This document shows, piece by piece, positions 5,716 to 58,712 of a DNA stretch of 62,799 nt. Source of the DNA: an uncultured Candidatus Saccharibacteria bacterium (GTDB lineage: Bacteria > Patescibacteriota > Saccharimonadia > Saccharimonadales > UBA4665); NCBI GenBank assembly GCA_964393815.1, contig CAYMUP010000001.1, positions 1 through 62,799 of the forward strand, read 5' to 3'. The notes under the pieces were generated by a model, which saw only the letters and a list, made by a program, of their open reading frames with translations, was not told where the DNA came from and searched no databases. Made by a program: the position numbers and the translations under genes. Each line of letters starts with the position of its first letter. Position 1 is the stretch's first letter.

Positions 5716-5740
5716 GCGCTTTTAAAAGCACGAAACCGCG

Positions 5741-6589
5741 GTGGGCAATGAGGGTACAATGAATCCAAACCAACAACAAGGACAACCAGTCGGAGCGAGA
5801 GGCTATGGGCAACAGCCCACTGTTAGTGCACAACCGGCTAGCAGCGCAGGCGTCAAAAAATCAAACCCAAACAGTACTCAAAATACGCTGCAGATTGCCG
5901 AAATACGCGATGGTATTGTGATAATGAACGATGGCACTTTTCGGGCGGTCGTGATGGTAAAAAGCATCAACTTTGACCTGATGAGTCCGCAGGAACAGGA
6001 AGCAGTGGAGTACGCTTACCAGGGGTTTTTAAACTCGCTGTATTTCCCAGTGCAGATTTTTGTCCGCTCCCAGCGCGTCGACTTGCAGCCTTATATCGAG
6101 AAGCTCGATAAAATCCGCACCGAACATGACAACATGCTACTGGCACTCCTCATGGACGACTATGTCGGCTACATAGACCAGTTGAGCATGCAGACCAACA
6201 TCATGGACAAGAAGTTTTACGTGGTGATACCTTTTGAGCCGGCCGTCGACCCCAGCAAGCTGCTCACCAAGGACAAAAACTTCATCACTGGGCTAGTGGA
6301 CATGTTTAGCAAAAAAGAAGACCACGTCGTTATCAATGAAAATGATCTAGAAAATGCCAAATCAGAGCTGCGTAACCGCGTCCAGGCTGTGCTTGGAGGT
6401 TTACAACAGTGCAGCATACAGGGTTTGCCGCTTGACACCCAGGAGCTCATCGAGCTCTATTACGACACCTATAACCCAGACACCGCAACCCGGCAGCAGC
6501 TCAAAAACTTCAACGATCTCAGTGCTGACGTAATCACCAAGGGGCAGGGAGTAGCAGAGCAGCCACACCTGCAGAGGGAACTACAATAA
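5741..6589 (+). CDS. VirB4 N-terminal-domain-like protein (possible detached first domain of a Tn916-Orf16/PrgJ-type VirB4)
   Basis: GTG start at 5741 (alternative ATG at 5759). Its stop overlaps the next start (TAATG at 6587-6591). After a Q/P-rich leader, IAEIRDGIVIMNDGTFRAVVMVKSINFDLMSPQEQEAVEYAYQGFLNSLYFPVQIFVRSQRVD resembles the extreme N-terminus of Gram-positive VirB4 ATPases. Confidence 0.5.
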   Translation: MGNEGTMNPNQQQGQPVGARGYGQQPTVSAQPASSAGVKKSNPNSTQNTLQIAEIRDGIVIMNDGTFRAVVMVKSINFDLMSPQEQEAVEYAYQGFLNSLYFPVQIFVRSQRVDLQPYIEKLDKIRTEHDNMLLALLMDDYVGYIDQLSMQTNIMDKKFYVVIPFEPAVDPSKLLTKDKNFITGLVDMFSKKEDHVVINENDLENAKSELRNRVQAVLGGLQQCSIQGLPLDTQELIELYYDTYNPDTATRQQLKNFNDLSADVITKGQGVAEQPHLQRELQ

Positions 6590-8511: not shown

Positions 8512-8529
8512 CAAGAGGGTAGGATCACC

Positions 8530-11496
8530 ATGGCTAATGCCGTATACGACGACAAAGACACTAATCTCGACGAACTAGAGAAAGCGTTTCATGCGCCGAG
8601 CGCCGAAACCTCTGGCTCAGATATTGCCCGTCAGCGAGAAGTCGATTCTCTCAACAACCAGTTCAATCACTCCCCAGACGAAGCAACGGAAACAAAAAAA
8701 CCACTAAAGTCAGATGACGCTGAAACCCTGAAAGACAAAGAAGAAACCCCCGATGACACAGTGGGAGAAGGTTACACTGGGGGAGGCAAGAAATCTGGTT
8801 CGGCTGCTTCGCGCATGCGAAACCGCTTTTTAAGATCGCCAAAGACAGTTTCTATCTTTGGAACCGGGGCACTCGTGCTCGGTGCCGGAACTTTTTTTGC
8901 TTTTATGTCTGCACCGCTCCTACAGATAGTCCATTACGCTAATATCCTACAAAACCCGATTAAGATTAGCGAAAACGCTAGCAACCAACGGCTTGGGCAC
9001 TTCCTGTGGGCACAGCGCTCAGTGGGCAAAGGCGGCGCAGGACAAAATGTCGTGGCTCGAACTAGAGTAAACGCTGTGGAATACAAAATGGTTAAGACGA
9101 TCAACGCGCGCATGGCCAAAATCGGTCTTACCTATGACTTTAGTGATCTTGGCCGAGTAAAAGGTATCACAATAGACATCTCCAAGCATCCTGACTACAA
9201 GTCACTTTCTGACTCTGGTGCTAGAGCCAAGCTTGCCGATGCGCTAAAGGTCTCGCCAGATCAAATAGAGCTGCCAAAACGAGGTGGTGTGCTCTTGAAA
9301 GTTGACGTCTCTAGACTGCCAATCAAGGTTCAGCGAAGCTTCTTCAAAGGTCAGGTCAAAACACTAGGAGAGGGGAGGGTAATCACTGCTTTAAATGCAC
9401 GTATTATTGGTAAATACCTAAAATTACCGCCAAGGTGGTTGCATCCTTGGGAAAATCAGAAGAAAAACCTAGGGAACGCATTACTTGAAACTAATACCTA
9501 TAAGAAGTTTAAGGCTTGGGAAGAAGAACGGCTGAAGGCCAAGTCGGCTCGCTCAGCAGCAGCAAAGGCTAAATTTGCAGAAGTAAGGGGTAAATTCTCG
9601 GCAAAAGCTGGGGTTGGGGGAGCAATCCTTGGTGGGCAAACAGTGTTGTGTGTCATTCGTGAAGCCGCAGAGAAAATTCCCGAAGCAAACCGAGCCAACT
9701 TTGTAGAGCCTGGGGTAGCATCAGCAGCAGACGCCATGGCTATGGGGTCACAGGTTGAGGCCGCTGATGACTTTAATGATGCTATGATATCTGCAACACT
9801 CGCAAACTGGACCGACAAGGACGGCAAGACACCTTTCCACGCCCAGGGAATTCATAATCTTGAGGGTAAGTCGGGTGGCACACCAGTAGATGAAGCTACC
9901 GCTAAAGCTTTCGACCCTGACAATAGCGCCTCAGCAATAACAAAAGTTCTTGACGAAAAACTTCAAGCAGACAGTATATGCAGTGGCGTTGGCCTGCTGA
10001 TTGGTGGGGTTGTTGGTATTAGTTTGATACTCTCCGGACCAGGCGGTTGGGCAATCAAAGCAGGTAGTGTAGCTGTAGGCGCCGCCACTGGCATAGCAGC
10101 AATTTCCCTTGTAATGAAATCTGTTGAGCATTTTCTCGTCGACGAGCCGCAGGAATTTATTGCCCACCAAGGTCCAGTAGGGGGTAACTTCGACGCACTA
10201 GGAGCCATCGAATTTGCAAACATCAATGGACGTGCGTCTGGTGGGGTTCGTCTAAACAACCAGCAAACGGCTCTACTCCAGCAAGAGGTATTTGATAATC
10301 AGTTATATGATTTTCAACAAAAAAGCTTTATTGCGCGCGTTTTCAACACAAGAGACTCTAAATCGCTAGCAGGTCAGGTTATCGATCAGGCACCGGTTAC
10401 AGCCAGTGAGCAGGTTGCCTCAGCAAAGCGCACGCTCTCAGATACACCCCGATTAGCTTATGCTGGTCTTGCCAATATATTTAGCAGTAAAAGGGTTAAG
10501 GCTGCACCCGTAGCGCCACTAATACCTTACTACGGTATGCCGGCGGGTACACTCGATCAGCCGGGGATGGGAGACCCGTATGAACTTGGCGACCACGTAG
10601 CTGACCTGCTTGATAGTTCAAAAGGCGGTGATCTGATAGAACATGCTTCTGTCTGCTGGGGAAATAAAATATCAAAAGAGAACGGTGTATGGGATGTGAA
10701 AAAAGATCGAGACGTCAACCCGGCATCTGCCGAGTTTCAAGAGGGGCACTGTGACGACTGGTCGGCCGATGTCCAGGCTATTAGTACCTGGATCGGCTAC
10801 GTCCACGACGCCGACGGATACCTTTGTGCGAACGCTACCAAAGAAGACACGGGTGATAGCTGCGACCGCGTGGGCGTCGGCACAGTCGCCTCAAGCGCTA
10901 CAGAGCAAACACCAGCAACGTTTAACCAAGATGATCTGCTCAAAGACTCCTCGAGTATGAATTGCCCAGCTGGCACCGAAGATTTGGGTGCTAATGGCGT
11001 CCAAGAGGGCTGGACGGGCGGCAATATGGTCAAGATCAGAGTTTGTGGTATACCTGGCATGAAAAACACCGGTGGGTCGCATGTTCCTGGTGACAATGGC
11101 AATGTCGTGGTAAATGTGCGCATAGCCGCAAACTGGCTAGCGCTTTTCAACAAAGCAAAAGCAGACGGTATTACGCTAGCAGCCGTCAGTGGTTTCCGTA
11201 CCTATGCCCAACAGGAGGCGCTTTGTCCATGTGACGGAGTAAATGTCGCCAAGCCAGGAACAAGCAACCACCAAATGGGTCTTGCGATTGACATAGCAGG
11301 CACAGGTATCATGGGAAGCAACTCGTCAAGCTGCACGCTCAGAGCGATCGACCCAAGTAGCAAAATATGGACCTGGCTCAACAACAACGCAGCCGCGCAG
11401 GGCATCAGGCAGTACACTAAAGAATCTTGGCACTGGGACCCAGACCCGACAAAATCCGGCAACCGCTGCGGCGGAGATGGGTCAATGAGAACATGA
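8530..11496 (+). CDS. membrane-anchored 988-aa protein with C-terminal M15 (VanY-like, LAS-fold) peptidoglycan peptidase domain
   Basis: RBS GAGGGTAGGA lies upstream of ATG 8530. TM helix VSIFGTGALVLGAGTFFAFMSAPLL plus a hydrophobic pair near aa 480-530. The last roughly 140 aa carry SGFRTYAQQ ... SNHQMGLAIDI ... ESWHWDP. Confidence 0.7.
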   Translation: MANAVYDDKDTNLDELEKAFHAPSAETSGSDIARQREVDSLNNQFNHSPDEATETKKPLKSDDAETLKDKEETPDDTVGEGYTGGGKKSGSAASRMRNRFLRSPKTVSIFGTGALVLGAGTFFAFMSAPLLQIVHYANILQNPIKISENASNQRLGHFLWAQRSVGKGGAGQNVVARTRVNAVEYKMVKTINARMAKIGLTYDFSDLGRVKGITIDISKHPDYKSLSDSGARAKLADALKVSPDQIELPKRGGVLLKVDVSRLPIKVQRSFFKGQVKTLGEGRVITALNARIIGKYLKLPPRWLHPWENQKKNLGNALLETNTYKKFKAWEEERLKAKSARSAAAKAKFAEVRGKFSAKAGVGGAILGGQTVLCVIREAAEKIPEANRANFVEPGVASAADAMAMGSQVEAADDFNDAMISATLANWTDKDGKTPFHAQGIHNLEGKSGGTPVDEATAKAFDPDNSASAITKVLDEKLQADSICSGVGLLIGGVVGISLILSGPGGWAIKAGSVAVGAATGIAAISLVMKSVEHFLVDEPQEFIAHQGPVGGNFDALGAIEFANINGRASGGVRLNNQQTALLQQEVFDNQLYDFQQKSFIARVFNTRDSKSLAGQVIDQAPVTASEQVASAKRTLSDTPRLAYAGLANIFSSKRVKAAPVAPLIPYYGMPAGTLDQPGMGDPYELGDHVADLLDSSKGGDLIEHASVCWGNKISKENGVWDVKKDRDVNPASAEFQEGHCDDWSADVQAISTWIGYVHDADGYLCANATKEDTGDSCDRVGVGTVASSATEQTPATFNQDDLLKDSSSMNCPAGTEDLGANGVQEGWTGGNMVKIRVCGIPGMKNTGGSHVPGDNGNVVVNVRIAANWLALFNKAKADGITLAAVSGFRTYAQQEALCPCDGVNVAKPGTSNHQMGLAIDIAGTGIMGSNSSSCTLRAIDPSSKIWTWLNNNAAAQGIRQYTKESWHWDPDPTKSGNRCGGDGSMRT

Positions 11497-14209: not shown

Positions 14210-15268
14210 CTAGCCCAGGGGGAGGATGGTGGCCTTGTCCATGAAGTGGTGGATGACGACGTCGGCGTCAGTGGTGGTTAGAAAGGTCTGATAGCGGTTC
14301 AGGTACGTCGTCAGGGCTTGGCGACGAGAACCGTCGAGCTCACTAAAAACGTCGTCGAGTAGTAGAAGGGGAGTCGTACTGGCCCTACCCCGCACATACT
14401 CTAGCTCAAAAACCTTGAGGGCGAGTATAAGCGTGCGGGTTTCGCCACGTGATGCCACCAGCGAAACAGGATTGTCGCCAAAAAACATCGCAAAGTCTTC
14501 TCGGTGGGGCCCACGTCCCGTAAACCCGCGCGCTACGTCGAGCGTCCGATGGGCGCTCAGCGCCTGCAAGAGGGCGCTGCTGTAGTTGTCGACCGGGAAA
14601 TAAGGCTGGTATTGCACGACGACTTTTTTGCTTTTATCTTTCGAGAGTTCGCCGTACAGCTCGTTCAACTGCTCGTTGACCGCCCCCACCAACTCAGCAC
14701 GCTCCCGCGCAATCACCGCACCAAGCTCACTAAGTCGCAGGTCCCAAGGGAAAAGCTCATGCTCGGACGGCGCTTTGGCCCGTTTCAACAAAGAGTTCCG
14801 CTGGGCAAGCACCCGTTTGTAGTTACGACGAAAGCCTTTAAACCCTGGTGAAGTCTGCTCAAGTATTTCGTCTAGGTAGCTACGACGTTGCTCGGGTGAT
14901 CCGTGAAGTAACTGTAGATGATTCGGTTCAAAAAGCACCACAGGTAGCTGCTGTCTTTCCGGGAGACGCTTGTAGTTGTGACCGCCAATTTCAAACGTTT
15001 TTTCAGACGCAGGGTTTACTACTATTTTTACCGTTCGCAGACTTTCGTCGGTTGTGTGGGCGTCTAGTCGTAGCCACTCGGCGCCGTGGCGAACCAGCTC
15101 GGCGTCTGCCACTCGGTACGAACTGCCGCGGGCGATGACGAGCAAGGCTTCGAGGAGATTTGTTTTACCGCTGCCATTTGGTCCGACCACTATGTTGACG
15201 CCGCTACCAAACTCAAATGTAACGTCTTCGTACGACCGAAAATGTTGCAGACGAATGTCACTAATCAT
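14210..15268 (-). CDS. recF: DNA replication and repair protein RecF
   Basis: MISDIRLQHFRSYEDV ... VGPNGSGKTNLLEAL (Walker A) ... LLLLDDVFSELD. Positioned after dnaN. Confidence 0.95.
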   Translation of the reverse strand: MISDIRLQHFRSYEDVTFEFGSGVNIVVGPNGSGKTNLLEALLVIARGSSYRVADAELVRHGAEWLRLDAHTTDESLRTVKIVVNPASEKTFEIGGHNYKRLPERQQLPVVLFEPNHLQLLHGSPEQRRSYLDEILEQTSPGFKGFRRNYKRVLAQRNSLLKRAKAPSEHELFPWDLRLSELGAVIARERAELVGAVNEQLNELYGELSKDKSKKVVVQYQPYFPVDNYSSALLQALSAHRTLDVARGFTGRGPHREDFAMFFGDNPVSLVASRGETRTLILALKVFELEYVRGRASTTPLLLLDDVFSELDGSRRQALTTYLNRYQTFLTTTDADVVIHHFMDKATILPLG

Positions 15269-15319
15269 ATGTTATAAGTGTATAGTTTTTAGTGATTGGT
15301 TTATAGGCTAAAAAGGTAA

Positions 15320-15367
15320 CTTCACTTGGGACGCCCGTTTCAACAGAGGCGGGTTTCACTTGGTTTC
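15320..15367 (-). repeat. dispersed dual-GTGAAA element, copy E (minus-strand orientation, 52 nt upstream of the recF start)
   Basis: The reverse complement reads GAAACCAAGTGAAACCCGCCTCTGTTGAAACGGGCGTCCCAAGTGAAG. The half-sites are 34 nt apart. Closest to copy D. Confidence 0.7.
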
Positions 15368-15635
15368 AAAATATCGAATATCGAATGCCGAATACCTAAA
15401 CAAAGTTTCAATGTTCTAAATCTCTAAATAATCTCGGCTTATGGTCGTCTCTAGGCGAACATAGTGAGTCGAAGGGTTTTCGCCTAAGGCGAAGTAGAAG
15501 ATAGTATGGGAAAAGCCAAAACGCAACCGTCCCAGGCTACCTAGCTGCATGTTTTCCATTCTTTGTTGTTTAGACATTCGATATTAGTAATTAGCGATTA
15601 GTCGACTTTAGAACCCCGATTCTTTGGGCCTCCGC

Positions 15636-16727
15636 CTATGATTTGAGGGGCATGATGATGTGTAGGTAGCTGGTGTCGTCGGGACTAGAAAGCAGCACCG
15701 CCTCAAGCTTGCCGTTGAAGCCAACTTGCACTTTTGCACCCTCGATCACCTGGAGCGCGTCAATCACAAATCGGGAGTTAAGCGTTATGGAGCCACTACC
15801 GACTGCTTCGACTTTGGCGGTGGCGTTGTTTTCCCCCAACTGTGAAGCCACGGCGCGCACCCATATACTCTCGCTGGCTTCATCAACACTCACCACCACG
15901 CTGCCGGCACTTTCACGCGCAAACAAGTTTGTAACCTTTACAATACTCGCGAGCTCACTGCGCGACATCGTCGCCTGAGTCGTGAAGCTTCGGGGGATAA
16001 GTTTACGATAGTCGGGATAGTTGCCGTCGATCAACCGTGCTACTAACTCGACCTCACTAGCCTCAAATTGGATCTGCTGGTCGTCGTGGGTAATCTGCAC
16101 TTCGCCAGTAAAATCATTGATAATACGCAGCACGTCGTGTAAGGCAGTCGCCGGCACCAGCACCCTTACTTCTTTATCGAGCTCCATAAGCTCTTTTTCG
16201 GCCAGGCGGTAGCTGTCGGTTGCAGCGGCGTAGAGTTTACCGTCAACCGTGTGGAGGAGCACACCAGTCAACACTGGTCGGCTGTCATCATTTGAGGCCG
16301 CAAAAATCACTTGCTGCAACGCCTGCTTTAGCACCGGTCCGGCGATGCTCCACGACACACCCTTTTCTACGCCCGGTACCACCGGGAATTCCTCGGCACT
16401 CATACCATTTATAACTGATTTATAACTGTCGGTGTTGATCTTGAGTCGCTGCTCATCTTGTTCTAGTTCGATCACGCCACTCGGCAACCCACTAATAAAA
16501 TCTTGAAACAAGCGGGCAGGGATGGTGATCGATCCTTCGGATTGCACCTGGGCACCCAGGTAGCTTTTGATAGCAATGTCTAGGTTGGTCGCCGTGAGGC
16601 TCAGCCGATTATCGGAAATTTTGAGTAGCACGTTGCCGAGAACAGGCAGGGTACCCCGCGAATTTGCAACCCTAGCCACCATAGAAAGGGCTCTTGCTAG
16701 GTTTTCTTGAGTGACCTTTAGTTTCAT
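15636..16727 (-). CDS. dnaN: DNA polymerase III beta sliding clamp
   Basis: 363 aa. MKLKVTQENLARALSMVARVANSRGTLPVLGNVLLK. Three-domain length. Sits between dnaA and recF. Confidence 0.92.
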   Translation of the reverse strand: MKLKVTQENLARALSMVARVANSRGTLPVLGNVLLKISDNRLSLTATNLDIAIKSYLGAQVQSEGSITIPARLFQDFISGLPSGVIELEQDEQRLKINTDSYKSVINGMSAEEFPVVPGVEKGVSWSIAGPVLKQALQQVIFAASNDDSRPVLTGVLLHTVDGKLYAAATDSYRLAEKELMELDKEVRVLVPATALHDVLRIINDFTGEVQITHDDQQIQFEASEVELVARLIDGNYPDYRKLIPRSFTTQATMSRSELASIVKVTNLFARESAGSVVVSVDEASESIWVRAVASQLGENNATAKVEAVGSGSITLNSRFVIDALQVIEGAKVQVGFNGKLEAVLLSSPDDTSYLHIIMPLKS

Positions 16728-16786
16728 ACACAGCTCCTTGTATTAATAATGTTTCTTGTACGTAATGTAGGGGTATTTATAGTGGG

Positions 16787-16860
16787 TGTGGAAAGAGTGG
16801 AAAAGCCAGGGAACACCACTGTTAGTTGACCAAAAAAGAGCGTGGAAAAGCCGTGGAACG
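16787..16860. promoter_or_regulatory. DnaA-box cluster in the dnaA-dnaN spacer (second half of a bipartite oriC)
   Basis: TGTGGAAAG 16787-16795, AGTGGAAAA 16796-16804, CGTGGAAAA 16841-16849 and CGTGGAACG 16852-16860. All are the complement orientation of TTWTCCACA-type boxes. Confidence 0.6.
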
Positions 16861-17009
16861 GACGGTGAAAAATGTGTGCAGAACCAGATAGTTTGTACAC
16901 ATTTTTTATGAGGGTATAGAAGGACTTGCGGAAAATCTTTGCCGTAGAGGGTGCTTTATGCACCACTTTGTCCTCAGGCACTCCACAGCGGCTGGTCCGG
17001 GGGCAGCGC

Positions 17010-18398
17010 CTAGGCATATAGTCGCTCCTTGATGTCCTGAATGGCGCTGCGAAGCTCGGGGTTAAGTTGCATCTCATGTTCGATTTTTTCGACGGAATGC
17101 ATGGCAGTAGTGTGATCTTTGCGGCCGAGTTCATGGGCAATTTTGGGAAAACTAAGGTGCAGCTCGCTCCGCAGCAGGTACATGGCAACTTGTCTCGGTA
17201 CGACAATATCTTTGTCGCGCTTAGGACCAACGATGTCCTCGAGGCTGACTAGGTAGTGTTTGGCGCAGCGCTCGATTATCTGTTTGGCGCTTAAGTGCTT
17301 TGGTCTTGAGTGGCCAGCGCCCAGTAGACCCGTAGCGATGGCTAGGTTTGGTTCGAGCGCACGCATTTCACAAAAGGCGAGAAGCTGGTTGAGCGCGCCT
17401 TCGAGTTCACGAATGTTGGTTTGGATGTTGACCGCCAGATACTCAACGACGTCGGTCGGCAACTGCACTCCTCGTGATTCGGCCTTTGACTGCAAAATAG
17501 CGCACCGGGTTTCATAGTCGGGGTTTTGCATGTCGATACTCATCCCCCAAACAAAACGGCTCTTGAGGCGGTTCTCGAGGGTGGGGATTTCGCCGGGGGG
17601 TTTATCGCTACTAAGGATAATCTGGTGATTGGCCTGGTGGAGAGCGTTAAAGGTGTGAAAAAACTCTTCCTGGATCTTTTCTTTGCCGGCGAGGAACTGC
17701 ACGTCGTCTACGATGAGTACGTCGGCGCTTCGGTAGTGGTCGGCAAAGGCGGTGTTTTTCTTGAAGCGCAGGGCGTCGACAAACTCTTGTACAAACTGCT
17801 CGCTCGTAACGTATACGACACGGGCACCGGGTTTGCTAGCGAGTACAGCATTACCGACAGCCTGTATGAGATGTGTTTTGCCTATTCCAGCGCCGCCGTA
17901 AAGAAAGAGGGGGTTGTATTTCGTGCCTGGTTCCGCGGCAATAGCTTGACAGGCGGCATAGGCGAGTTCGTTGGCAGCGCCGACAATGAAAGTGTCAAAA
18001 GTATAGCGTTCATTTATACCTTGTCGGTAGGTGTGGCTGAGGGGGGAGGTTGAGGGAATGGGAGGTGGGGTTGTGGCGGTGGGGGCGTGAACAGGACGAG
18101 GCTGGGGCGCTAAAACTTCAACCGGAATCTCTGGTGCTTTGGTTTGGGGTTGAGCGGGCAAAATTTTATAGCTGATTTTAGGCGAGGTTAGGCCATTTTT
18201 TTGCAGCGTCTTACTAATAAGGTCATTATATTTGCCTTCAAGCTGTTGCTTTATAAATATGTTTGGCGCACCAATGACCACGTTGTCGCCGTCAACACTA
18301 ACAAGCTGGGAGTTTTTAAACCACGTTAGGTAGCTGGCTCTTGATAGGCCAATCTCGACTTCTCCTAATACGGTTTGCCACAGGCGTTCGGTCTGCAT
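17010..18398 (-). CDS. dnaA: chromosomal replication initiator DnaA
   Basis: LFLYGGAGIGKTHL (Walker A), LIVDDVQFLAGKE, and the C-terminal DNA-binding helix region ELGRKDHTTAMHSVEKI. Confidence 0.97.
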   Translation of the reverse strand: MQTERLWQTVLGEVEIGLSRASYLTWFKNSQLVSVDGDNVVIGAPNIFIKQQLEGKYNDLISKTLQKNGLTSPKISYKILPAQPQTKAPEIPVEVLAPQPRPVHAPTATTPPPIPSTSPLSHTYRQGINERYTFDTFIVGAANELAYAACQAIAAEPGTKYNPLFLYGGAGIGKTHLIQAVGNAVLASKPGARVVYVTSEQFVQEFVDALRFKKNTAFADHYRSADVLIVDDVQFLAGKEKIQEEFFHTFNALHQANHQIILSSDKPPGEIPTLENRLKSRFVWGMSIDMQNPDYETRCAILQSKAESRGVQLPTDVVEYLAVNIQTNIRELEGALNQLLAFCEMRALEPNLAIATGLLGAGHSRPKHLSAKQIIERCAKHYLVSLEDIVGPKRDKDIVVPRQVAMYLLRSELHLSFPKIAHELGRKDHTTAMHSVEKIEHEMQLNPELRSAIQDIKERLYA

Positions 18399-18909: not shown

Positions 18910-19290
18910 ATGGTTACCTCAAGACATCGTTTTCAAGGTAGAAATAGTCTCAGCGCCGCATATCGGCGCGGTACCGTAGTGCGCGGCCAGTCGTTGCAGC
19001 TGCGAGTACTCAAAAATCAAAGTGCTTCGTACCGCTTAGCGGTAGTGGTAAGTAAAAAGGTTCATAAGTCTGCGGTGGTCCGTAATCGCATTCGCCGAAG
19101 GCTGTATGAAATTGCTCGGCTTCGCTTGAGCGAAACGAACCGCGACGACCTCATAATTAGTGTCTTTGACCTGCGCCTCGCCACGATGCCAGCGGCCGAC
19201 CTACAAAAAACTGTTGTAAAACTCTTTGAACGTGCGAACTTACAGCTTACAGATAGCGCTCAGCGTGCTATAGTGGAGTTCGAGGTTTAG
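18910..19290 (+). CDS. rnpA: ribonuclease P protein component
   Basis: 126 aa. VVVSKKVHKSAVVRNRIRRRLYE (RNR motif). rpmH-rnpA-yidC synteny. Confidence 0.88.
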   Translation: MVTSRHRFQGRNSLSAAYRRGTVVRGQSLQLRVLKNQSASYRLAVVVSKKVHKSAVVRNRIRRRLYEIARLRLSETNRDDLIISVFDLRLATMPAADLQKTVVKLFERANLQLTDSAQRAIVEFEV

Positions 19291-19293
19291 TTT

Positions 19294-20316
19294 ATGTTTC
19301 ATAATTTTGTCGTTTTACCCATATTTAACCTACTCGTTACCATCTATGCCCTCATACCTGGGCATAATTTTGGCTTAGCGCTTATCATTTTTACGGTAAT
19401 TATCCGTCTTTTGATGTGGCCACTGGTCAAAAAACAGCTTCGTCAGGCTAAAGTAACCCGTGCGCTCCAGCCAGAGCTAAAACGCATCAAAAAAGAAGCC
19501 GCCGGAGACCGCCAAAAAGAATCCATGATGATGATGGAGCTCTACAAAGAGCGTGGCGTCAATCCGTTCGGCTCTATACCGACGCTTATCGTGCAGATGA
19601 TCATCCTCTTTGGGCTCTACGCCGGGCTGATGAAGGTCATCAAAGACCATAAGCAAATTGTTGATATGGCCTACCCTTTTTTGCAGGACTTGTCGTGGCT
19701 AAAACATCTCGATAAAAACATTCATCTTTTTGATAACTCCCTGCTTGGTGTTGTTGACCTAGCGCGGCCGGCGATCGGACCCAAAGGCTTTTACTTGCCG
19801 GCATTTCTGTTAGTCGTAGGCAGTGCTGCTATTCAGTTCTTAACTAGCCGTCAACTGATGCCAACCGACAAAGATAGCCGTAAGCTGCGAGATATTTTGA
19901 AAGATGCGGGTGACGGCAAGCAAGCTGACCAATCAGAAGTGAGTGCGGCTGTCGGTAAAAATATGCAGTACATCATCCCCCTAATGGTGTTTGTTTTTAC
20001 TATCAACCTAGCGGCAGCTCTCAGTCTCTACTGGTTAGTAGGTGGACTGGTCGCGTATGTGCAGCAAAAAATTGCGCTTGGCGAGGAGACAGATGATCTT
20101 ATGGAAAGCGTCGAAAAGCCTCGACGCACTACCGCTCGCTCTAACTCAAAGTCAACTCCAAAACGTCCCACCGTCTCTTTGCCTACAGAAGAAACAGACG
20201 TGATTCGCACCAAGAGTGGCAGCAAAATCACCTACGGCGATATACCTGAAGCAGAAATTATCTCAAACACCCAAACTACCACTAAAGCCCGCTCTAAAAA
20301 AAGAAGGAGGAGATGA
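19294..20316 (+). CDS. yidC: membrane protein insertase YidC (short Gram-positive type)
   Basis: Multi-TM protein. IIFTVIIRLLMWPLVKKQ ... MMELYKERGVNPFGS. Basic C-terminal tail. Synteny supports the call. Confidence 0.88.
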   Translation: MFHNFVVLPIFNLLVTIYALIPGHNFGLALIIFTVIIRLLMWPLVKKQLRQAKVTRALQPELKRIKKEAAGDRQKESMMMMELYKERGVNPFGSIPTLIVQMIILFGLYAGLMKVIKDHKQIVDMAYPFLQDLSWLKHLDKNIHLFDNSLLGVVDLARPAIGPKGFYLPAFLLVVGSAAIQFLTSRQLMPTDKDSRKLRDILKDAGDGKQADQSEVSAAVGKNMQYIIPLMVFVFTINLAAALSLYWLVGGLVAYVQQKIALGEETDDLMESVEKPRRTTARSNSKSTPKRPTVSLPTEETDVIRTKSGSKITYGDIPEAEIISNTQTTTKARSKKRRRR

Positions 20317-20789
20317 CGATGAACGATTCTATAGACGATGCAATTTTATACGGCAAAAAGTATCTTGAGGACCTCCTCTCGTTTTTTGGTCTCAATACTG
20401 ATGTGTATGCCACTAGTGAAGACGGCGAAGTTGTGGAGCTCAATGTGCCCTCGACACATCTCAACGGTTTTTTGATCGGCCAGCGGGGCGATACTATGCG
20501 TTCGCTGCAGTTTCTTGTCAGTAGCGCGCTCAAAAGCCAAGGCTACGCTAAAAACCGTGTCAACGTCGACATTGCTGACTACAAAAAGCACCATGCCGAC
20601 CGAGTAGCCGAGCAAGCCGAGGAATGGATCAAAAAAGTCAAAGAAACAGGCGAGCCGTACGAAGTAAAGTCTATGAATCCGGCCGACCGGCGTACCATAC
20701 ACCGCGTGGCGGCTGATGCTGGACTTGTGAGCGACTCTGTCGGCGAAGGCCGAGAGCGACACATTGTGCTTAAGCTACCAGAGGAGTAG
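20313..20789 (+). CDS. jag: Jag/KhpB-type KH plus R3H RNA-binding protein
   Basis: ATGA overlap with yidC. C-terminal R3H region PADRRTIHRVAADAGLVSDSVGEGRERHIVLK. Confidence 0.8.
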   Translation: MTMNDSIDDAILYGKKYLEDLLSFFGLNTDVYATSEDGEVVELNVPSTHLNGFLIGQRGDTMRSLQFLVSSALKSQGYAKNRVNVDIADYKKHHADRVAEQAEEWIKKVKETGEPYEVKSMNPADRRTIHRVAADAGLVSDSVGEGRERHIVLKLPEE

Positions 20790-20792
20790 GCC

Positions 20793-21776
20793 TTGCAGAC
20801 TAAGCGTATTGTTGTGCTTGGTGGCGGCACCGGTAGTTTTACGCTCCTCCAGTCGCTGAAGGGTTTGTCACCCAAGATTACTGCCATCGTTAATATGTGT
20901 GACGATGGCGGTTCCACTGGCGTGCTCCGCGATGAACTTGGGGTTTTGCCTCCCGGCGACGCCAGACAGTGTCTCGTTGCGCTCAGTGAAAGGCCAGAGA
21001 TCCGAGAACTTTTTGACTACCGTTTTGATGGTGGTCGCTTGAGCGGTCAGTCGCTAGGCAACATCATCTTATCTGGCCTAGAGCTGCAACATGGGAGCTT
21101 CGAAAAGGCCGTTGAGGTAGCGAGCCGCATTTTGCGCATCCGTGGGCACGTTGTGCCAGTGGTGCTTGGTGACCATAAACTAGTTATGGACGATGGAGGC
21201 AAAGAAGTTGTAGGCCAGTTTAACATTCGAAATCACGTCGTAGAGTCGGAGGCACCTCGGGTTCGCCTAGAGCCAGTCACAACCCTAAACCCCAAAGCAA
21301 ACCGTGCAATTCGTAAAGCCGACATTGTGGTTATCGCACCTGGCGGTTTGTATTATTCTCTTTTGCCCATATTTTCGGTAAACGGCATGAAAGAAGCACT
21401 GCAGGAGACGTCGGCGCAGGTAGTGTGTGTGTCGAATCTCATCGAACGTAAAGGTCGGGCGGAATCATGGCATGTCGTAGATCATGTGAAGACTATTGAG
21501 GAGTATGTTGGTGAGGGTACGATTGATGTGGTGCTGTATAACAATGCGCCTCTTGAACAGCACCTCATCGAAAGATATGCCGCAGAGGGTGATCATCCAG
21601 TGCTTATTACGCCCGATCGTTTTACTGAAATTGGGTGTAAGGCGGTAGGTGCGCCGCTAATTTCCCCCACACTACACGTGCAAGATGCCGCAGATAAGGC
21701 CATCCAGCGCACGCTTATCCGTCATGATGCCGACCGCGTCAGTGAAGAAATAGCGAAATTTCTTACAGAAAAATAG
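20793..21776 (+). CDS. YvcK/CofD-family (UPF0052) protein
   Basis: TTG start. VVLGGGTGSFTLLQSLKG ... IVNMCDDGGSTGVLRDELGVLPPGDARQCLVAL. Confidence 0.8.
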   Translation: MQTKRIVVLGGGTGSFTLLQSLKGLSPKITAIVNMCDDGGSTGVLRDELGVLPPGDARQCLVALSERPEIRELFDYRFDGGRLSGQSLGNIILSGLELQHGSFEKAVEVASRILRIRGHVVPVVLGDHKLVMDDGGKEVVGQFNIRNHVVESEAPRVRLEPVTTLNPKANRAIRKADIVVIAPGGLYYSLLPIFSVNGMKEALQETSAQVVCVSNLIERKGRAESWHVVDHVKTIEEYVGEGTIDVVLYNNAPLEQHLIERYAAEGDHPVLITPDRFTEIGCKAVGAPLISPTLHVQDAADKAIQRTLIRHDADRVSEEIAKFLTEK

Positions 21777-54409: not shown

Positions 54410-54901
54410 ATGGATCAGACACCGGCCGCGTCCGAGAAGACACTTAGGCCGACCAAAAAGCAAAAAGAGCTCTTAGCCTACATCGAGCAGTTTATAGCTG
54501 AAAACGGCTATAGCCCGAGCTACCGTGAGATCATGAGTGGCCTCGAGTACACCTCGGTAGCGACTGTGGCATTGCACGTCGGTAATCTTATTTCACGTGG
54601 TCATTTACGCAAACGTGAGCATAGCGCTCGCTCGCTTGAGGTGGTGACTCCTTCGGCTGAATTTACTTCAGAGCCCAAGCTAAAGACAAACGAAGTGAAA
54701 CCATCAGAGGAGAAATGGCTCATCGAGAAGGTCGAACACTTGTTTAGCGAGGCAGAAGGTCAGGCAGTCGCCACCGAAGAAGACTTGCGCCCCATTGAGA
54801 TTATGTTGGCCGCTCTCCGTGTACTCGGGCTAGAAGCGGGCGCACAGAGCTTTGCGGAGCGTTACCAAGCACTGAAAGGGCAGGGTAAGTCAAGTGAATG
54901 A
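54410..54901 (+). CDS. LexA-type winged-helix DNA-binding protein lacking the S24 peptidase domain
   Basis: TKKQKELLAYIEQFIAENGYSPSYREIMSGLEYTSVATVALHVGNLISRGHLRK follows the LexA N-terminal domain pattern. The remaining about 90 aa have no Ala-Gly/Ser-Lys autocleavage signature. Confidence 0.7.
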   Translation: MDQTPAASEKTLRPTKKQKELLAYIEQFIAENGYSPSYREIMSGLEYTSVATVALHVGNLISRGHLRKREHSARSLEVVTPSAEFTSEPKLKTNEVKPSEEKWLIEKVEHLFSEAEGQAVATEEDLRPIEIMLAALRVLGLEAGAQSFAERYQALKGQGKSSE

Positions 54902-55588: not shown

Positions 55589-56395
55589 CTATTGCAGGTC
55601 TCTAAGAAAAGCTAAGGTGCCATCTTCATAAATTTTTCCGGGCCGAATAATGGTTACCTGGTCGTGTTGCGGCAACTCCTCGCTCTCCTTTCCTACGAAA
55701 ACGAAAGTGACCGGTATAGCTTGCTCGGAAAAAAACTGAGCCATGGCGTAGTCGCTCGCGCTGTCGCCAAAGCAAGTTCGACCTGTAACAATCATTGGCT
55801 TAGTAGCGGACCATTCATGAAGTAATCTCGACCCTGCATATTTACCAGCGGCGACAGACTCTATATCAGTAGAAATGGTCGTACAGTCAACCTTCACTTT
55901 CTCATTGCTCGCCGCAAAAGCTTCTACAAGAATGTCAGCAAGTACCTTTTGCTCTTGATGATATTTGGCGAGCGGTACATCGGGTCTTTTTTCAATGGTT
56001 GCCATCGTCGTTTTGCTAGTGTCCCAAAACATTGTTTTAAACTCATGGTCATGATCAAAAAAAATTTGTTTTGCCAGATTGTATTGGGCTGGGGTTAAAG
56101 CAAACGGGCTCTGAGCCGGTATGGTGCTGCCATGTGACCAGGTAATGAGTTCTCCACCTTTCTGGCAAGCAATTGCTAGGTGTGACTGGCCAGCCTGATC
56201 CATGCCTTCTAAAAGGTGGCCTAGAAGATGCTCTTGCAGCCAGGCGTAAGATCTACCAGTATTAATACCAACCAGATTCCCCTCTGCGAGGAGTGAACGT
56301 ATGATCGCCACCACTGCAGGGCTAAAAGCACTATTGTGAGGATTTGTTATAACGCCGTCTACATCAAATATAAAAAAATGAGCTGTTTTGGACAT
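55589..56395 (-). CDS. HAD-superfamily hydrolase
   Basis: Motif I FIFDVDGVITNP and motif IV-like CFGDSASDYAMAQ. Confidence 0.75.
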   Translation of the reverse strand: MSKTAHFFIFDVDGVITNPHNSAFSPAVVAIIRSLLAEGNLVGINTGRSYAWLQEHLLGHLLEGMDQAGQSHLAIACQKGGELITWSHGSTIPAQSPFALTPAQYNLAKQIFFDHDHEFKTMFWDTSKTTMATIEKRPDVPLAKYHQEQKVLADILVEAFAASNEKVKVDCTTISTDIESVAAGKYAGSRLLHEWSATKPMIVTGRTCFGDSASDYAMAQFFSEQAIPVTFVFVGKESEELPQHDQVTIIRPGKIYEDGTLAFLRDLQ

Positions 56396-56530
56396 GAAGC
56401 TAGCATACTACATTATTCTTAATAGGGCAGGTACCTACTCTGGACATGGAGAATGCGGTCAAAAATACTATATCTAGTGTGTCGGCTAGCATGATAGACT
56501 CTAAACACGTCTCTAAAAAGTTAACAAATT

Positions 56531-56607
56531 GTAAGCTGGAATCGGGTGTAAGTCCCGAACTGTGCCGCAACGGTAACCGCGAAAAACGGAAGTCCGAAAC
56601 AGCGTAA
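56531..56607 (+). promoter_or_regulatory. cobalamin riboswitch aptamer (compact architecture)
   Basis: GUAAGCUGGAAUCGGGUGUAAGUCCCGAACUGUGCCGCAACGGUAACCGCGAAAAACGGAAGUCCGAAACAGCG. Contains the GGAA junction, the UCGGG/CCCGA hairpin with a GUGUAAGU loop, CUG..CCGCAACGGUAA, and a B12-box-like AAGUCCGAAAC. GCUG 56535-56538 can pair with CAGC 56600-56603. Matched to the family consensus from memory, with no covariance-model run. Confidence 0.7.
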
Positions 56608-56663
56608 AGTCTTCCGAGCAGAAGCGAAGTATGTCAACATATAGACATAGTCTCTTGTCGCTG

Positions 56664-56688
56664 CCCTCGGAGTTACGAGGGTATTTTT
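56664..56688 (+). terminator. riboswitch expression platform: hairpin plus U-tract that also buries the SD
   Basis: CCCTCG (56664-56669) / loop GAGTTA / CGAGGG (56676-56681), then TATTTTT, then ATG at 56689. The GAGGG in the 3' arm is the only SD-like element. CCGAG at 56614-56618 can alternatively pair with CTCGG at 56666-56670. Confidence 0.6.
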
Positions 56689-57882
56689 ATGGTCTATACG
56701 CCCGAGCGATTGGCGAAAAATCCACACACTATCAGTAGTGAGATTGATCGATACTTGAGTGTTTATAACGACACGACAACCTGGTTTGCCGAAGCGCTCA
56801 ATGGCTCAATGCGCACTCCGTTTACGTACCAGTATGATGGCCATGAATTGCGCTCATCTGAGGGGTCGTCTATGGGTAACGTGTTCAAGGCGTCGTTGAA
56901 AGAGGCTGAAAGTATTGCAAACGAAGACCCGATTTTGGCTTTCGAGAAAAGACGTCGAAAAATTGAACTTGGGGAATATAGTGAGATGTTGTCAATGGCC
57001 GAGGGAACATTGCCCAATACGATGGTTGTCGTTTCTGATTTTCCTGCCGAGTTAATGGGGCGCACGAGAGATGTCGGTGGCTATAACGTTGAAAGGCAAC
57101 AGACGATGCTACGTGTTATTTATTGGCAGGACAATCAGATGCATATGCTTTCTCAGAGCCTCGACAGATCTGATCGTCTCGGACTTGAAGCGATCTACGA
57201 AGCGATGGGTGAAAGAGCAGCTCCAGGCGAGTTGCTCGGTCAGCGAATCCACAAAGACCTTACTACCGATGAGCAGAAATTTTTGATCGATAAGCTTATG
57301 GGGGTGTATGATCGATCGCTTGCCGAAAGATACGGGGGTCAGTTTCATGCTGGTCGGCGTGACATGTCTCAAGACACCTATCTCTTTGCTTGCTCACAGA
57401 CTGATTTGGTAGATAGGTGGGTACTTGCGGAACTTTCAGGTAACTTGGCTAATTATGATAAATACAATATTATTGCTGCACTTTCCGCTCGATATGATGC
57501 AGCTCACCACTTAAAACCCCAGGTATCACCACAGCTTCAAACAGCGTTTTCATACTCTGGGATCGCGTACGGGGCTTTACAGCCAGGTCATAACCTTGAG
57601 GTCGAACTTCGGCTTATGGGTGCCCGTGCCCGTGCGGAAGGCAAACAATATAGTGGTTGTGGCGGTACAATAAAAGCAGCTGAGGGTGGGTTAGAATACG
57701 AGCTGAATCAGCTTGGCTACGGGAACAAGATTGACACAGCACGTAGTGACGATGGGGGTGATGGTTTAGGCCCGTTAACTTTCAAGTGCGCAGAGGGGCA
57801 TACAAATACCCGCAAAAAAGGCGAGTTGCTGAAAGAATGTCGAGTGAAAGGCTGCAAAAAGGGTTCGGTTGGTTGTGGCTAA
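56689..57882 (+). CDS. hypothetical soluble protein (397 aa) with C-terminal Cys cluster, downstream of the cobalamin riboswitch
   Basis: ATG ORF with no long hydrophobic segment. The C-terminus carries YSGCGG ... FKCAEGH ... ECRVKGCKKGSVGCG. No family recognised. Confidence 0.7.
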   Translation: MVYTPERLAKNPHTISSEIDRYLSVYNDTTTWFAEALNGSMRTPFTYQYDGHELRSSEGSSMGNVFKASLKEAESIANEDPILAFEKRRRKIELGEYSEMLSMAEGTLPNTMVVVSDFPAELMGRTRDVGGYNVERQQTMLRVIYWQDNQMHMLSQSLDRSDRLGLEAIYEAMGERAAPGELLGQRIHKDLTTDEQKFLIDKLMGVYDRSLAERYGGQFHAGRRDMSQDTYLFACSQTDLVDRWVLAELSGNLANYDKYNIIAALSARYDAAHHLKPQVSPQLQTAFSYSGIAYGALQPGHNLEVELRLMGARARAEGKQYSGCGGTIKAAEGGLEYELNQLGYGNKIDTARSDDGGDGLGPLTFKCAEGHTNTRKKGELLKECRVKGCKKGSVGCG

Positions 57883-57905
57883 TGCGAGGAGTGTAAAATA
57901 AAGCC

Positions 57906-58073
57906 ATGATTGATGAGTTTGACCCATATGCCGAGATGGTAAAAGAACAGGCGCCGGAGCTGTTTTGTGAAGTGTGCGGACACTATCCTCTAGAGCCGGT
58001 ACATGGGCACTTTGCCTGTCCGAGCTGCAAGAGCGTCACTAAATGCTGCGAAGGTTTGCCACAAGATGTGTAG
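57906..58073 (+). CDS. small zinc-ribbon-like protein (55 aa), not in the supplied ORF track
   Basis: Translated by hand: MIDEFDPYAEMVKEQAPELFCEVCGHYPLEPVHGHFACPSCKSVTKCCEGLPQDV. It has CxxC ... CxxC spacing. AGGAG at 57887-57891 lies 14 nt upstream of the ATG. Confidence 0.45.
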   Translation: MIDEFDPYAEMVKEQAPELFCEVCGHYPLEPVHGHFACPSCKSVTKCCEGLPQDV

Positions 58074-58080
58074 GGAAAAG

Positions 58081-58127
58081 CAAACGAAGTGAAAGTCACC
58101 GAAGTTAAAAATACATCCCAGGTGAAA
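58081..58127 (+). repeat. dispersed dual-GTGAAA element, copy C (overlaps the nadD start region)
   Basis: CAAACGAAGTGAAAGTCACCGAAGTTAAAAATACATCCCAGGTGAAA. Hexamers start at 58089 and 58122, 33 nt apart. Both GTGs are in frame with nadD. Confidence 0.75.
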
Positions 58128-58712
58128 GAGCGTCGGATTGGAATATATAGCGGCACGTTTGACCCCGTGCACGCCGGGCATGTTGCGTTTGCACTCCAGG
58201 CGCTTGAGAAAGCTGATCTTGAGGCCATTTATTTTTTGCCAGAGAGGTTGCCGCGCTACAAGCCTCACGTTGAGCATTTTGGCCACCGTACAGCCATGCT
58301 AGAGCGGGCGCTTCGACCACATGTCGGGCTCAAGCTTATCGATGACCTGCCGGAGCCATATTTTTCTGTCGCCAGAACTCTGCCAAGGCTGCGGCAAAAG
58401 TTTCCAGAGGCTAAGCTGTGCTTTTTGATTGGGTCAGATGTAGCCACTCATATTTCAAGCTGGGATAGTGTTGAGGAGCTTCTTCGCTCTAGCGAACTCA
58501 TCGTGGGCCTACGAGAAGGGTCAGACGGCGTAGCCCTAACGGCAAACTTGCCTGAAGGGGCGAAAGCCAAGGTAGTCTCCGTAGCTAGACCAGGGATACG
58601 ATCATCGCTAATTCGGAAGTCTGTGTACGACAACGCAAGCCCTCCCGGACTATTAAAAAGTGTGTATAACTACGTTCGACGAGAATGGCTCTATCTCAAA
58701 AACCCCTCATAA
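58089..58712 (+). CDS. nadD: nicotinate-nucleotide adenylyltransferase
   Basis: RIGIYSGTFDPVHAGH (GxFxPxHxGH) and C-terminal IRSSLIRKSV (ISSTxIR-like). The start is ambiguous between GTG 58089 and GTG 58122, both inside repeat copy C. Confidence 0.85.
   Translation: MKVTEVKNTSQVKERRIGIYSGTFDPVHAGHVAFALQALEKADLEAIYFLPERLPRYKPHVEHFGHRTAMLERALRPHVGLKLIDDLPEPYFSVARTLPRLRQKFPEAKLCFLIGSDVATHISSWDSVEELLRSSELIVGLREGSDGVALTANLPEGAKAKVVSVARPGIRSSLIRKSVYDNASPPGLLKSVYNYVRREWLYLKNPS

Follow-up and report, generated by a model that had tools for sequence, protein, structure and literature searches.

Within the 62,799-nt stretch of an uncultured Candidatus Saccharibacteria bacterium that was analyzed here in its whole length (the window), a 293-nt intergenic gap at 56396–56688 separates two divergent genes, that of a HAD-IIB (HAD-like) hydrolase on the minus strand (55589–56395) and that of an uncharacterized 397-aa protein, named X397 here, on the plus strand (56689–57882, ATG at 56689). 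The gap holds the leader of X397, which a preliminary description had read as similar to a cobalamin (vitamin B12) riboswitch, and all the sequence elements quoted there were found in place, with the quoted aptamer string beginning at 56531. Downstream of X397 on the same strand are C55, encoding a 55-aa protein with a CxxC...CxxC pattern (57906–58073), and the syntenic nadD, encoding nicotinate-nucleotide adenylyltransferase (58089–58712; matches to Pfam PF01467 and TIGR00482). Two genes upstream of X397 lies the gene of a 163-aa protein with a LexA-type DNA-binding domain (LexA_DNA_bind) and without an S24 peptidase domain (54410–54901, plus strand), which is syntenic in most of the loci compared. 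These loci were from Saccharimonadales genomes and metagenomes: 56 came from GTDB species representatives and four (L057–L060) from an exact-protein look-up, and after setting aside L051, L052, and L058, whose sequence breaks off at the 5′ end of the gene, the upstream sequence could be read in 57 loci. The usual gene order was LexA-like, p229, X397, nadD, DsbA, and CBS. Relative to the syntenic relatives, the HAD-IIB gene is an insertion, and in L001, L002, and L057 a 229-aa membrane-anchored protein is encoded immediately 5′ of the X397 promoter.

The search of the whole window against Rfam listed nothing at the gathering thresholds. A sensitive local search of the leader alone matched RF00174 (Cobalamin) at 56501–56618 on the plus strand with 31.3 bits (E = 2.1e-6), and standard annotation misses the riboswitch because this score is 0.2 bits below the gathering threshold of the family (31.5). 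Immediately 5′ of the orthologous genes, 19 of 34 leaders tested passed the gathering threshold of RF00174 or RF01689, with 33–46 bits. A dedicated covariance model (R1) was built from an alignment of 41 leaders (A3). It gave one match of 55–116 bits in each of the 57 loci, on the strand of the gene and upstream of the X397 homologue, and no further matches elsewhere in 581 kb; the window leader scored 104.7 bits. Seventeen of these loci had not been used in model building, including L059 and L060, in which the protein shares only about 26% identity with the window X397.

To describe the structure, base pairs were counted on A3 for a model consisting of the helices P3, P4, P5, P6, and P13 and an L5-L13 pseudoknot. 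Standard pairs were formed in 96.9% of the cells, compared with 29–52% when the partners were slid by one to three columns. Compensatory changes on both sides were found in 12 of the 23 pairs (three of four in P3, four of five in P4, one of three in P6, and all four in P13), and the covariation score was reached by none of 500 shuffles. The core motifs, namely the GGAA junction, the L4 T-loop, CUGUGCCGCAAC, and the B12 box AGUCCGA, were invariant in the 41 leaders. In the window, the aptamer core, supported by the RF00174 match, R1, and the compensatory changes, spans 56535–56603 on the plus strand, on which all leader elements described below also lie. The GCUG/CAGC closing helix and the hairpin capped by GUGnAAnU, which the preliminary description had picked out, correspond to P3 (56535–38/56600–03) and to P4 (56542–46/56554–58) with its T-loop L4, and both are backed by the covariance-model matches and the compensatory changes. 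They are followed by P5 (56561–62/56568–69) with the loop L5 UGCCG (56563–67), by P6 (56571–73/56594–96), which carries a 13-nt extension hairpin (56577–89), and by the B12-box region (56591–56603). Downstream of the core, the P13 hairpin CUUC-CGAGCA-GAAG occupies 56611–56624 (stem 56611–14/56621–24, loop L13 56615–20).

L5 UGCCG and L13 CGAGCA can form five pairs with one bulged A, and 98% of the cells in the alignment are pairable. Kissing loops of this kind have at least one unpaired nucleotide, an L13 placed in a stem-loop, and a short linker (PMC5028336), and the candidate kissing loop fits these rules with its bulged A, its stem-loop L13, and a linker of about 7 nt. The loop CGAGCA is therewith a candidate for the actual link between sensor and expression platform. 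On the 5′ side, a single-stranded UUAACAA (56521–56527) lies 8 nt before P3; it is conserved in most of the 41 leaders at 8–10 nt from P3, without a pairing partner, and may be the equivalent of the J1/3 T-loop of class-II riboswitches or lie near the 5′ end of the transcript. No convincing pairing of the 5′ flank with the segment 3′ of P3 was found that would make a P1 helix, and the 5′ pairs that the Rfam alignment assigns to the window leader are mostly non-canonical.

These results firmly support that the leader is a genuine compact cobalamin riboswitch, and it is a new, sub-threshold member of a known riboswitch class. The aptamer match of the preliminary description was borne out by the covariance-model matches, the compensatory changes, and the conserved core, and three of the examinations proposed with it came out in its favor, namely the Rfam search (RF00174 just below gathering in the window, relatives above it), the covariation in related intergenic regions (P3, P4, P6, and P13), and the riboswitch linkage of homologues of the 397-aa protein elsewhere. 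Its suggestion of the compact class agrees with the relatives that match RF01689, and the P6 extension ranges from none to more than 100 nt within the X397-leader family. Some leaders score best with RF01689 and others with RF00174 because the length of this extension varies.

The leader shares with class-II riboswitches (RF01689, e.g., env8HyCbl) the compact P3–P6 four-way junction with little or no peripheral extension on P6, the L4 T-loop GUGnAAnUC, the core CUGUGCCGCAACGGU...AGUCCGA, the candidate L5-L13 kissing loop with an unpaired purine, and the linker of about 7 nt to the P13 stem-loop; many leaders of X397 orthologues score above the RF01689 gathering threshold. It differs from env8, whose L13 holds the ribosome-binding site, in that its L13 CGAGCA is not a Shine-Dalgarno (SD) sequence and P13 competes with a separate downstream hairpin that acts as terminator or SD sequestrator. 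The probable transcription start, some 28 nt 5′ of P3, would account for the absence of an evident P1 in the window leader. Published class-II criteria include the lack of a peripheral extension on P6 and a J1/3 T-loop that docks on J6/3, and the window leader carries a 13-nt extension hairpin on P6, its relatives carry extensions of zero to more than 100 nt, and the conserved UUAACAA may be the counterpart of J1/3. With the class-I adenosylcobalamin (AdoCbl) riboswitches of RF00174, such as those of Bacillus subtilis btuF and Thermoanaerobacter tengcongensis, the leader has in common the aptamer core, the B12 box, and a kissing loop, a candidate in this leader, that couples the aptamer to a choice between terminator and anti-terminator, and RF00174 is the best Rfam match of the window leader; unlike them, it lacks P1, P2, and the large P6–P11 periphery. 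The literature gave no simple sequence rule applicable to this leader for selectivity between AdoCbl and methylcobalamin or hydroxocobalamin.

The expression platform follows the aptamer. The terminator scan found a hairpin, UGCCCUCG-GAGUUA-CGAGGGUA (56662–83, arms 56662–69/56676–83), in which CCCUCG/GAGUUA/CGAGGG at 56664–56681 is followed by UAUUUUU and the ATG. It has a dG of −13.6 kcal/mol and ends 5 nt before the AUG; the space between is filled by a U5 tract (56684–88), and the SD-like GAGGG (56678–82) is buried in the 3′ arm. Between P13 and this terminator, minimum free energy (MFE) folds contained a spacer hairpin, UAUGUC-AACAUAUA-GACAUA (56630–56649), which is variable or optional in other loci. 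In the family, the arms of the terminator hairpin read CCCUYGCUCG on the 5′ side and CGAGGGU on the 3′ side, and a few U residues separate the hairpin from the start codon. The platform was parsed automatically in 39 loci. The hairpins had a median dG of −13.6 kcal/mol and a median distance of 6 nt to the start codon, and in 30 of the 39 loci the 3′ arm held an SD-like purine run.

The 3′ strand of an anti-terminator was located at 56659–56672, where 56666–72 can pair with 56612–18 and 56659–62 with 56623–26. This duplex reached −15.0 kcal/mol (RNAduplex), and none of 200 shuffles was as good. In the 39 loci, the duplex of the P13 segment with the terminator 5′ arm and loop had a median of −13.8 kcal/mol and a median z of −2.6, and the pairing was significant against shuffles (p ≤ 0.05) in 26. 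Constrained folds of the window leader gave −23.1 kcal/mol for the OFF state (P13 and terminator) versus −22.4 kcal/mol for the ON state, nearly isoenergetic, and the nascent RNA up to 56675 adopted the anti-terminator by MFE. The preliminary description had proposed a ligand-controlled terminator or sequestrator that buries GAGGG, and the mutually exclusive pairings proved to be conserved and statistically supported. It had also named an upstream CCGAG (56614–56618) as a possible competitor for CUCGG; the alternative pairing stands, but this CCGAG sits in the conserved P13 hairpin.

Upstream of the riboswitch, the aligned DNA contained a second conserved element, a palindrome with the consensus ATACTAtATcTAGCGT. 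The earlier view that the leader controls the gene holds for the riboswitch, but it had missed this candidate second layer of control. In the window, the 16-bp palindrome is ATACTATATCTAGTGT (56465–56480, plus strand), located in the −35 region of the leader promoter and similar to the box of NrdR, a repressor of ribonucleotide reductase (RNR) genes. In a box-anchored alignment of 43 loci, a −10-like block was conserved 13–14 nt after the palindrome; in the window this is TGATAGACT (56492–56500, plus strand; family consensus TGnTAnACT), a putative extended −10 promoter element with a predicted transcription start at about 56506–56508. The palindrome is unique in the window. Its exact 15-mer core occurred once per locus in 33 loci, including L028 and the highly diverged L094, L104, L107, and L118, and in none of the DUF4430 loci described below.

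Published NrdR boxes are 16-bp partial palindromes in which C4, A6, A8, T9, T11, and G13 are conserved, and they come in pairs 15–16 bp apart (PMC13584703). NrdR accepts spacers of 14–17 or 24–27 bp and does not bind to a box that stands alone (PMC12051234). All six core positions were present in the window palindrome; among the 57 loci, 43 had six and 10 had five of them. With strict criteria that include the flanking positions, 35 of the 38 sites in the 1.3 Mb examined lay at the position of the X397 promoter. One of the other three, L139:1071, is the downstream box of a canonical pair directly in front of a bona fide nrdR (L139:1039–1541; Zn_ribbon_NrdR and ATP-cone domains, 42% identity to Escherichia coli NrdR), whose promoter carries the tandem boxes CCCATAGATTTAGTGT and, after a 16-bp linker, CCACCATATATAGCGT. 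This pair together with nrdR indicates that NrdR and its boxes exist in these lineages, and the L139 contig also carries DUF4430, DUF6580, and the riboswitch. The 158-aa and 126-aa open reading frames (ORFs) of the window had been considered as nrdR and were rejected, as they are Jag/R3H-like and RnpA. The chances that the X397 palindrome is a true NrdR operator appear about even.

To survey other targets of this riboswitch subtype, a metagenome scan for the core 15-mer was used, which yielded 120 loci, and R1 matched 58 of them at E ≤ 0.01 (42 + 16). Fifty of the R1 matches were full-length, and 43 of those had a readable first ORF and were classified. About 19–20 of the first downstream genes encoded X397 homologues or proteins with the same C-terminal signature, i.e., G-S-C-G-G, a linker, and a CxxC...CxxC ribbon. 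About 13 encoded DUF4430 proteins, often followed by large Cobalamin_bind/SQHop-like (transcobalamin-like) proteins or by DUF6580 membrane proteins, and one NrdD and two TonB-type receptors were also among the first genes. In L028, a single riboswitch precedes DUF4430, DUF6580, and an X397 homologue, the start of which overlaps the stop of DUF6580. A class II, B12-dependent RNR adjoined riboswitch/DUF4430 loci in five cases (L067, L125, L145, L160, and L164), with ATP-cone, RNR barrel, and PF21995 domains (e.g., L160:3655–5967), and no clear NrdR boxes were seen in the four promoters of these genes that were scanned (L067, L125, L145, and L160). The adjacency of class II RNR to uptake loci indicates that related lineages of the Candidate Phyla Radiation (CPR) need B12 for deoxyribonucleotide (dNTP) synthesis. 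Judged by the genes that it precedes, the riboswitch subtype appears to serve a classic B12 OFF regulon in related CPR lineages. As a separate observation, contig L138 (1–2730, minus strand; riboswitch 2607–2730) carries DUF4430, DUF6580, and a heliorhodopsin gene (PF18761, E = 5e-95) on one strand, so that an unexpected co-transcription of heliorhodopsin with B12-uptake genes is possible in this CPR contig.

The orphan proteins linked to the riboswitch were compared with X397 by profile-profile alignment (hhalign). Homology was found for L150/L065 (98.9%) and L120/L147 (78%), only the ribbon aligned for the L069 group, and groups C, E, F, G, and H were not significant. A single "SPPG...GSCGG...Zn-ribbon" superfamily of all these orphans was abandoned, since hhalign supports only some of its members, and the architectural resemblance alone is kept. 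L094, L118, and L119 are positional orthologues of X397, because they share the palindrome, the riboswitch, and the downstream nadD.

The X397 family itself is large. We found 328 homologues in a collection of 5.8 billion proteins and, in an exhaustive profile search, 510 representatives at 50% identity; all the homologues were unannotated, and the named ones came from Saccharimonadales, Saccharibacteria, or Patescibacteria. X397 matched no family in Pfam, NCBIfam, PHROGs, or PADLOC, and the best E-values against the PDB sequences were 0.31 (phmmer) and 0.89 with a profile. The AlphaFold2 (AF2) model of the window protein had a mean predicted local distance difference test score (pLDDT) of 86.5 and a predicted template modeling score (pTM) of 0.76, and Foldseek found nothing for it in the PDB and BFVD at E ≤ 1e-3 (template modeling score, TM, <0.2). 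A second AlphaFold model, of a distant subfamily (pLDDT 78.3), had the same order of secondary structures and again no PDB neighbor at E ≤ 1e-3 (TM <0.2). X397 is a founding member of an undescribed protein family without a detectable fold relative, and the structure search that had been suggested for it thus led to no known family or fold neighbor. By inspection it has no signal peptide or transmembrane segment, and it is predicted to be cytoplasmic.

Residues E35, R89, R142, S157, D159, D208, G222, and C324 were invariant across the family including its distant members, and T31, E93, E96, S116, Y132, R136, Y207, and R223 were nearly so. This pattern, typical of the active site of an enzyme, suggests that X397 is enzyme-like. 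C324 is part of an SGCG beta-hairpin, which is followed by a flexible, low-confidence linker with (L/A)GYGN and by a C-terminal Cys cluster similar to a Zn-ribbon. There is a superficial likeness to the C-terminal region of NrdD, with a Cys4-type ribbon near a Gly-aromatic GYGN and a conserved Cys on a beta-hairpin. In X397, however, the order of these elements is reversed, the RVxGY context and, in the AF2 models, the ten-stranded barrel are absent, no activase gene lies near X397, and no sequence or fold similarity was detected. We take the resemblance to NrdD as a lead only, and no membership is claimed.

Of the regulated genes proposed at the outset, X397 remained uncharacterized in the HMM libraries, the PDB, and the fold searches, as had been said, but C55 turned out to travel with nadD rather than with the riboswitch. 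C55 is a conserved Saccharimonadales mini-protein with four to six Cys (53 homologue clusters), about 75–85% identical between genomes versus 55–63% for X397. It was present in about 20 of the 56 loci and missing from about two thirds, and its link to the riboswitch is doubtful. In this genome, C55 and nadD are probably co-transcribed with X397, because the terminator scan of the window found none between X397 and nadD.

Taken together, the leader very probably functions as a compact cobalamin riboswitch that represses X397 when B12 is present. The transcript would start from the extended −10 promoter, some 180 nt before the AUG, and the aptamer would fold into the P3–P6 four-way junction. With a corrinoid bound, which we infer to be the ligand, L5 UGCCG would kiss L13 CG-A-GCA 7 nt downstream and lock P13. 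The segment 56659–56672 would then be free, and the hairpin UGCCCUCG/CGAGGGUA with its U5 tract would form, terminating transcription and/or burying the GAGGG SD 5–6 nt from the AUG, which would turn the gene off. Without ligand, the 5′ half of P13 and L13 (UUCCGAG, AGCG) would pair with the terminator 5′ arm, and the resulting anti-terminator would keep the gene on. X397 would probably be part of a B12-starvation response in organisms that rely on a B12-dependent RNR. We lean tentatively toward a B12-sparing role in deoxyribonucleotide supply, because the palindrome, if it is an NrdR site, would give X397 the regulatory signature otherwise seen on alternative RNR operons; our high confidence covers the regulatory core and not this functional lean. 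In its most specific form, X397 would be a new type of enzyme providing a B12-independent deoxyribonucleotide route that replaces class II RNR in Saccharibacteria, which we consider improbable. Such a route would explain why no gene but X397 has both a B12 OFF riboswitch and an NrdR-type operator, and the hairpin Cys, the Gly-Tyr motif, and the metal-binding ribbon would be its catalytic apparatus.

Dual control of this kind has a parallel in Streptomyces coelicolor, where, as reportedly described by Borovok and colleagues, nrdAB is under the control of both NrdR and a B12 riboswitch. X397 shares with it a 5′ riboswitch that would repress in the presence of B12, a candidate NrdR-type operator in the promoter, and a lineage that also has class II RNR. 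It differs in that none of the sequence and fold tests identified X397 as an RNR and its promoter has one full candidate NrdR box instead of the canonical pair. The part of NrdR in the control of S. coelicolor nrdAB is described in PMC13584703.

Several observations weigh against the proposed regulation and function. The Rfam score of the window leader falls short of the gathering threshold, however narrowly; L5 and L13 are near-invariant and offer no covariation to prove the kissing loop; and the U-tract is only 5 nt long, so that the hairpin may either terminate transcription or purely sequester the SD. At the promoter, no canonical second NrdR box was found at any spacing on either side of the palindrome in the X397 loci, and published NrdRs do not bind single boxes (PMC12051234), of which the X397 promoter has one in full. 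The best second site averaged 2.5 of the six positions, at 17 bp, against a background of about 1.6, the second site of the window itself had 2 of 6, and the only conserved partner was a left half-site AnACTA at about 14 bp, which coincides with the −10 element. No nrdR was found in the 62.8-kb window. The sequence and fold of X397 resemble neither an RNR nor a kinase nor any known corrinoid enzyme, no partner gene such as an activase or a reductant is conserved beside it across the loci, and DUF4430 or DUF6580 was near X397 in only one of the 57 loci (L028) and in none of the other 56.

The palindrome could instead be the site of another regulator, such as the protein with the LexA DNA-binding domain encoded upstream, and have no specific link to dNTPs. 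We regard this as a serious possibility, if slightly short of an even chance, since the box is single where published NrdRs need two, the second conserved block is the −10 element, which alone could explain its conservation, and the LexA_DNA_bind gene keeps its place upstream in most loci; moreover, by our own estimate a generic palindrome fits the three symmetric NrdR core pairs by chance in about 1 of 64 cases. On the other hand, the NrdR consensus is matched at 13 of the 16 positions, all six key bases among them, in over 40 species, the promoter of the bona fide nrdR in L139 has a very similar box (CCACCATATATAGCGT), and the LexA-like gene has no further copy of the palindrome in front of it, although autoregulation would lead one to expect it. 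A different function is offered by the idea that X397 is a cytoplasmic enzyme of corrinoid processing or AdoCbl supply for NrdJ and that the riboswitch exerts classic feedback on B12 acquisition. X397 might then represent a fourth kind of ATP:corrinoid adenosyltransferase, not homologous to the others, or act as a CblC/BtuM-like dealkylase or chaperone; in each of these roles it would trap imported B12 and supply AdoCbl to the class II RNR. Vitreschak and Rodionov reportedly found in 2003 that most bacterial targets of B12 riboswitches are acquisition or salvage genes. The idea is also supported by the L028 operon, where DUF4430, DUF6580, and X397 share one riboswitch with a start/stop overlap, by the dependence of the relatives on NrdJ, and by the invariant Cys and the many invariant Arg, Asp, and Glu, which could bind cobalt, ATP, and Mg. 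Uptake genes, however, are co-localized in that single locus of the 57, the NrdR-like box that distinguishes X397 is missing from the uptake operons, neither sequence nor fold showed any similarity to CobA, PduO, EutT, or CblC, and X397 is confined to a subset of Saccharimonadales, whereas an essential AdoCbl supplier would be expected in all NrdJ users. We consider this function the main alternative and nearly as likely as the B12-sparing role. Related CPR contigs carry this riboswitch subtype, P13 hairpin included, in front of DUF4430/transcobalamin-like/DUF6580 operons, and in L028 such genes share an operon with X397; their proteins are secreted or membrane-bound, in contrast to the cytoplasmic X397, and the palindrome is absent from their loci.

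That C55 and nadD, and hence NAD synthesis, are the true targets of the riboswitch and X397 is a passenger would agree with the lack of a terminator between X397 and nadD in the window and with the place of nadD, which in 40 of 56 loci follows X397 on its strand within the locus and in about half of these abuts it. But nadD was not found within 4 kb of X397 in 15 of the 56 loci, and L009 has C55 and nadD on the other strand, with the riboswitch staying at X397. The neighborhood is generally syntenic, so that adjacency carries little information, and we know of no B12-dependent step in NAD metabolism. The idea was rejected on grounds of synteny, and we hold it to be very improbable. Even less credible is that the leader is the relic of an aptamer, a sensor of a non-corrinoid ligand, or an ON switch, in spite of the window score just under Rfam gathering and of the activating corrinoid riboswitches that are reported to exist (PMC10327014). 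In all 57 loci the core and the helices show strict conservation together with compensatory changes, and of the mutually exclusive pairings, the one with the ligand-stabilized P13 is that in which the terminator forms. DUF4430 and transcobalamin-like genes and NrdD, which this subtype also controls, are textbook B12-repressed genes.

Other parts of the window carry further features. A cluster similar to type IV secretion systems at 4543–11496 on the plus strand encodes a PrgI-family protein, a VirB4/TraG-type ATPase, and a 988-aa protein whose C-terminal domain is a VanY D-Ala-D-Ala carboxypeptidase, and the large ORFs that flank it (15–3143 and 3210–4412) had no Pfam match. The genes recF, dnaN, and dnaA (14210–18398, minus strand) diverge from rnpA, yidC, a jag/R3H-like gene, and a CofD-like gene (18910–21776, plus strand), a layout which indicates that the window includes the region of the chromosomal origin. 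A surface-polysaccharide biosynthesis cluster of about 29 kb (approximately 25650–54365) fills nearly half of the window, with several GT2 and GT4 glycosyltransferases, an ABC-2/Wzt exporter, epimerases, Wzy_C, and Bac_transf.

Our literature searches returned nothing that links cobalamin riboswitches with Saccharibacteria, Patescibacteria, or CPR, and nothing relevant on DUF4430 or DUF6580 with riboswitches, DUF6580 not being mentioned at all. The combination of a B12 riboswitch with an NrdR-like operator on X397 is new. With the riboswitch 0.2 bits under the Rfam threshold and X397 without a Pfam model, both are invisible to standard pipelines. Saccharibacteria and other CPR have minimal genomes and live on other microbes, and to our knowledge it is largely unclear how they meet their needs for cofactors and DNA precursors. 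The locus helps to define the B12 regulon of the group, which comprises DUF4430/DUF6580 uptake, NrdD, and the X397 family, beside class II RNR. Within this regulon, X397 is a widespread and well-conserved orphan whose expression is wired to B12 and possibly to an RNR repressor. Following riboswitches has led to new transporters and enzymes time and again, and the link to a riboswitch gives a precise handle on this new protein family. X397 thus points to a new player in how B12-dependent Saccharibacteria cope with B12 shortage.

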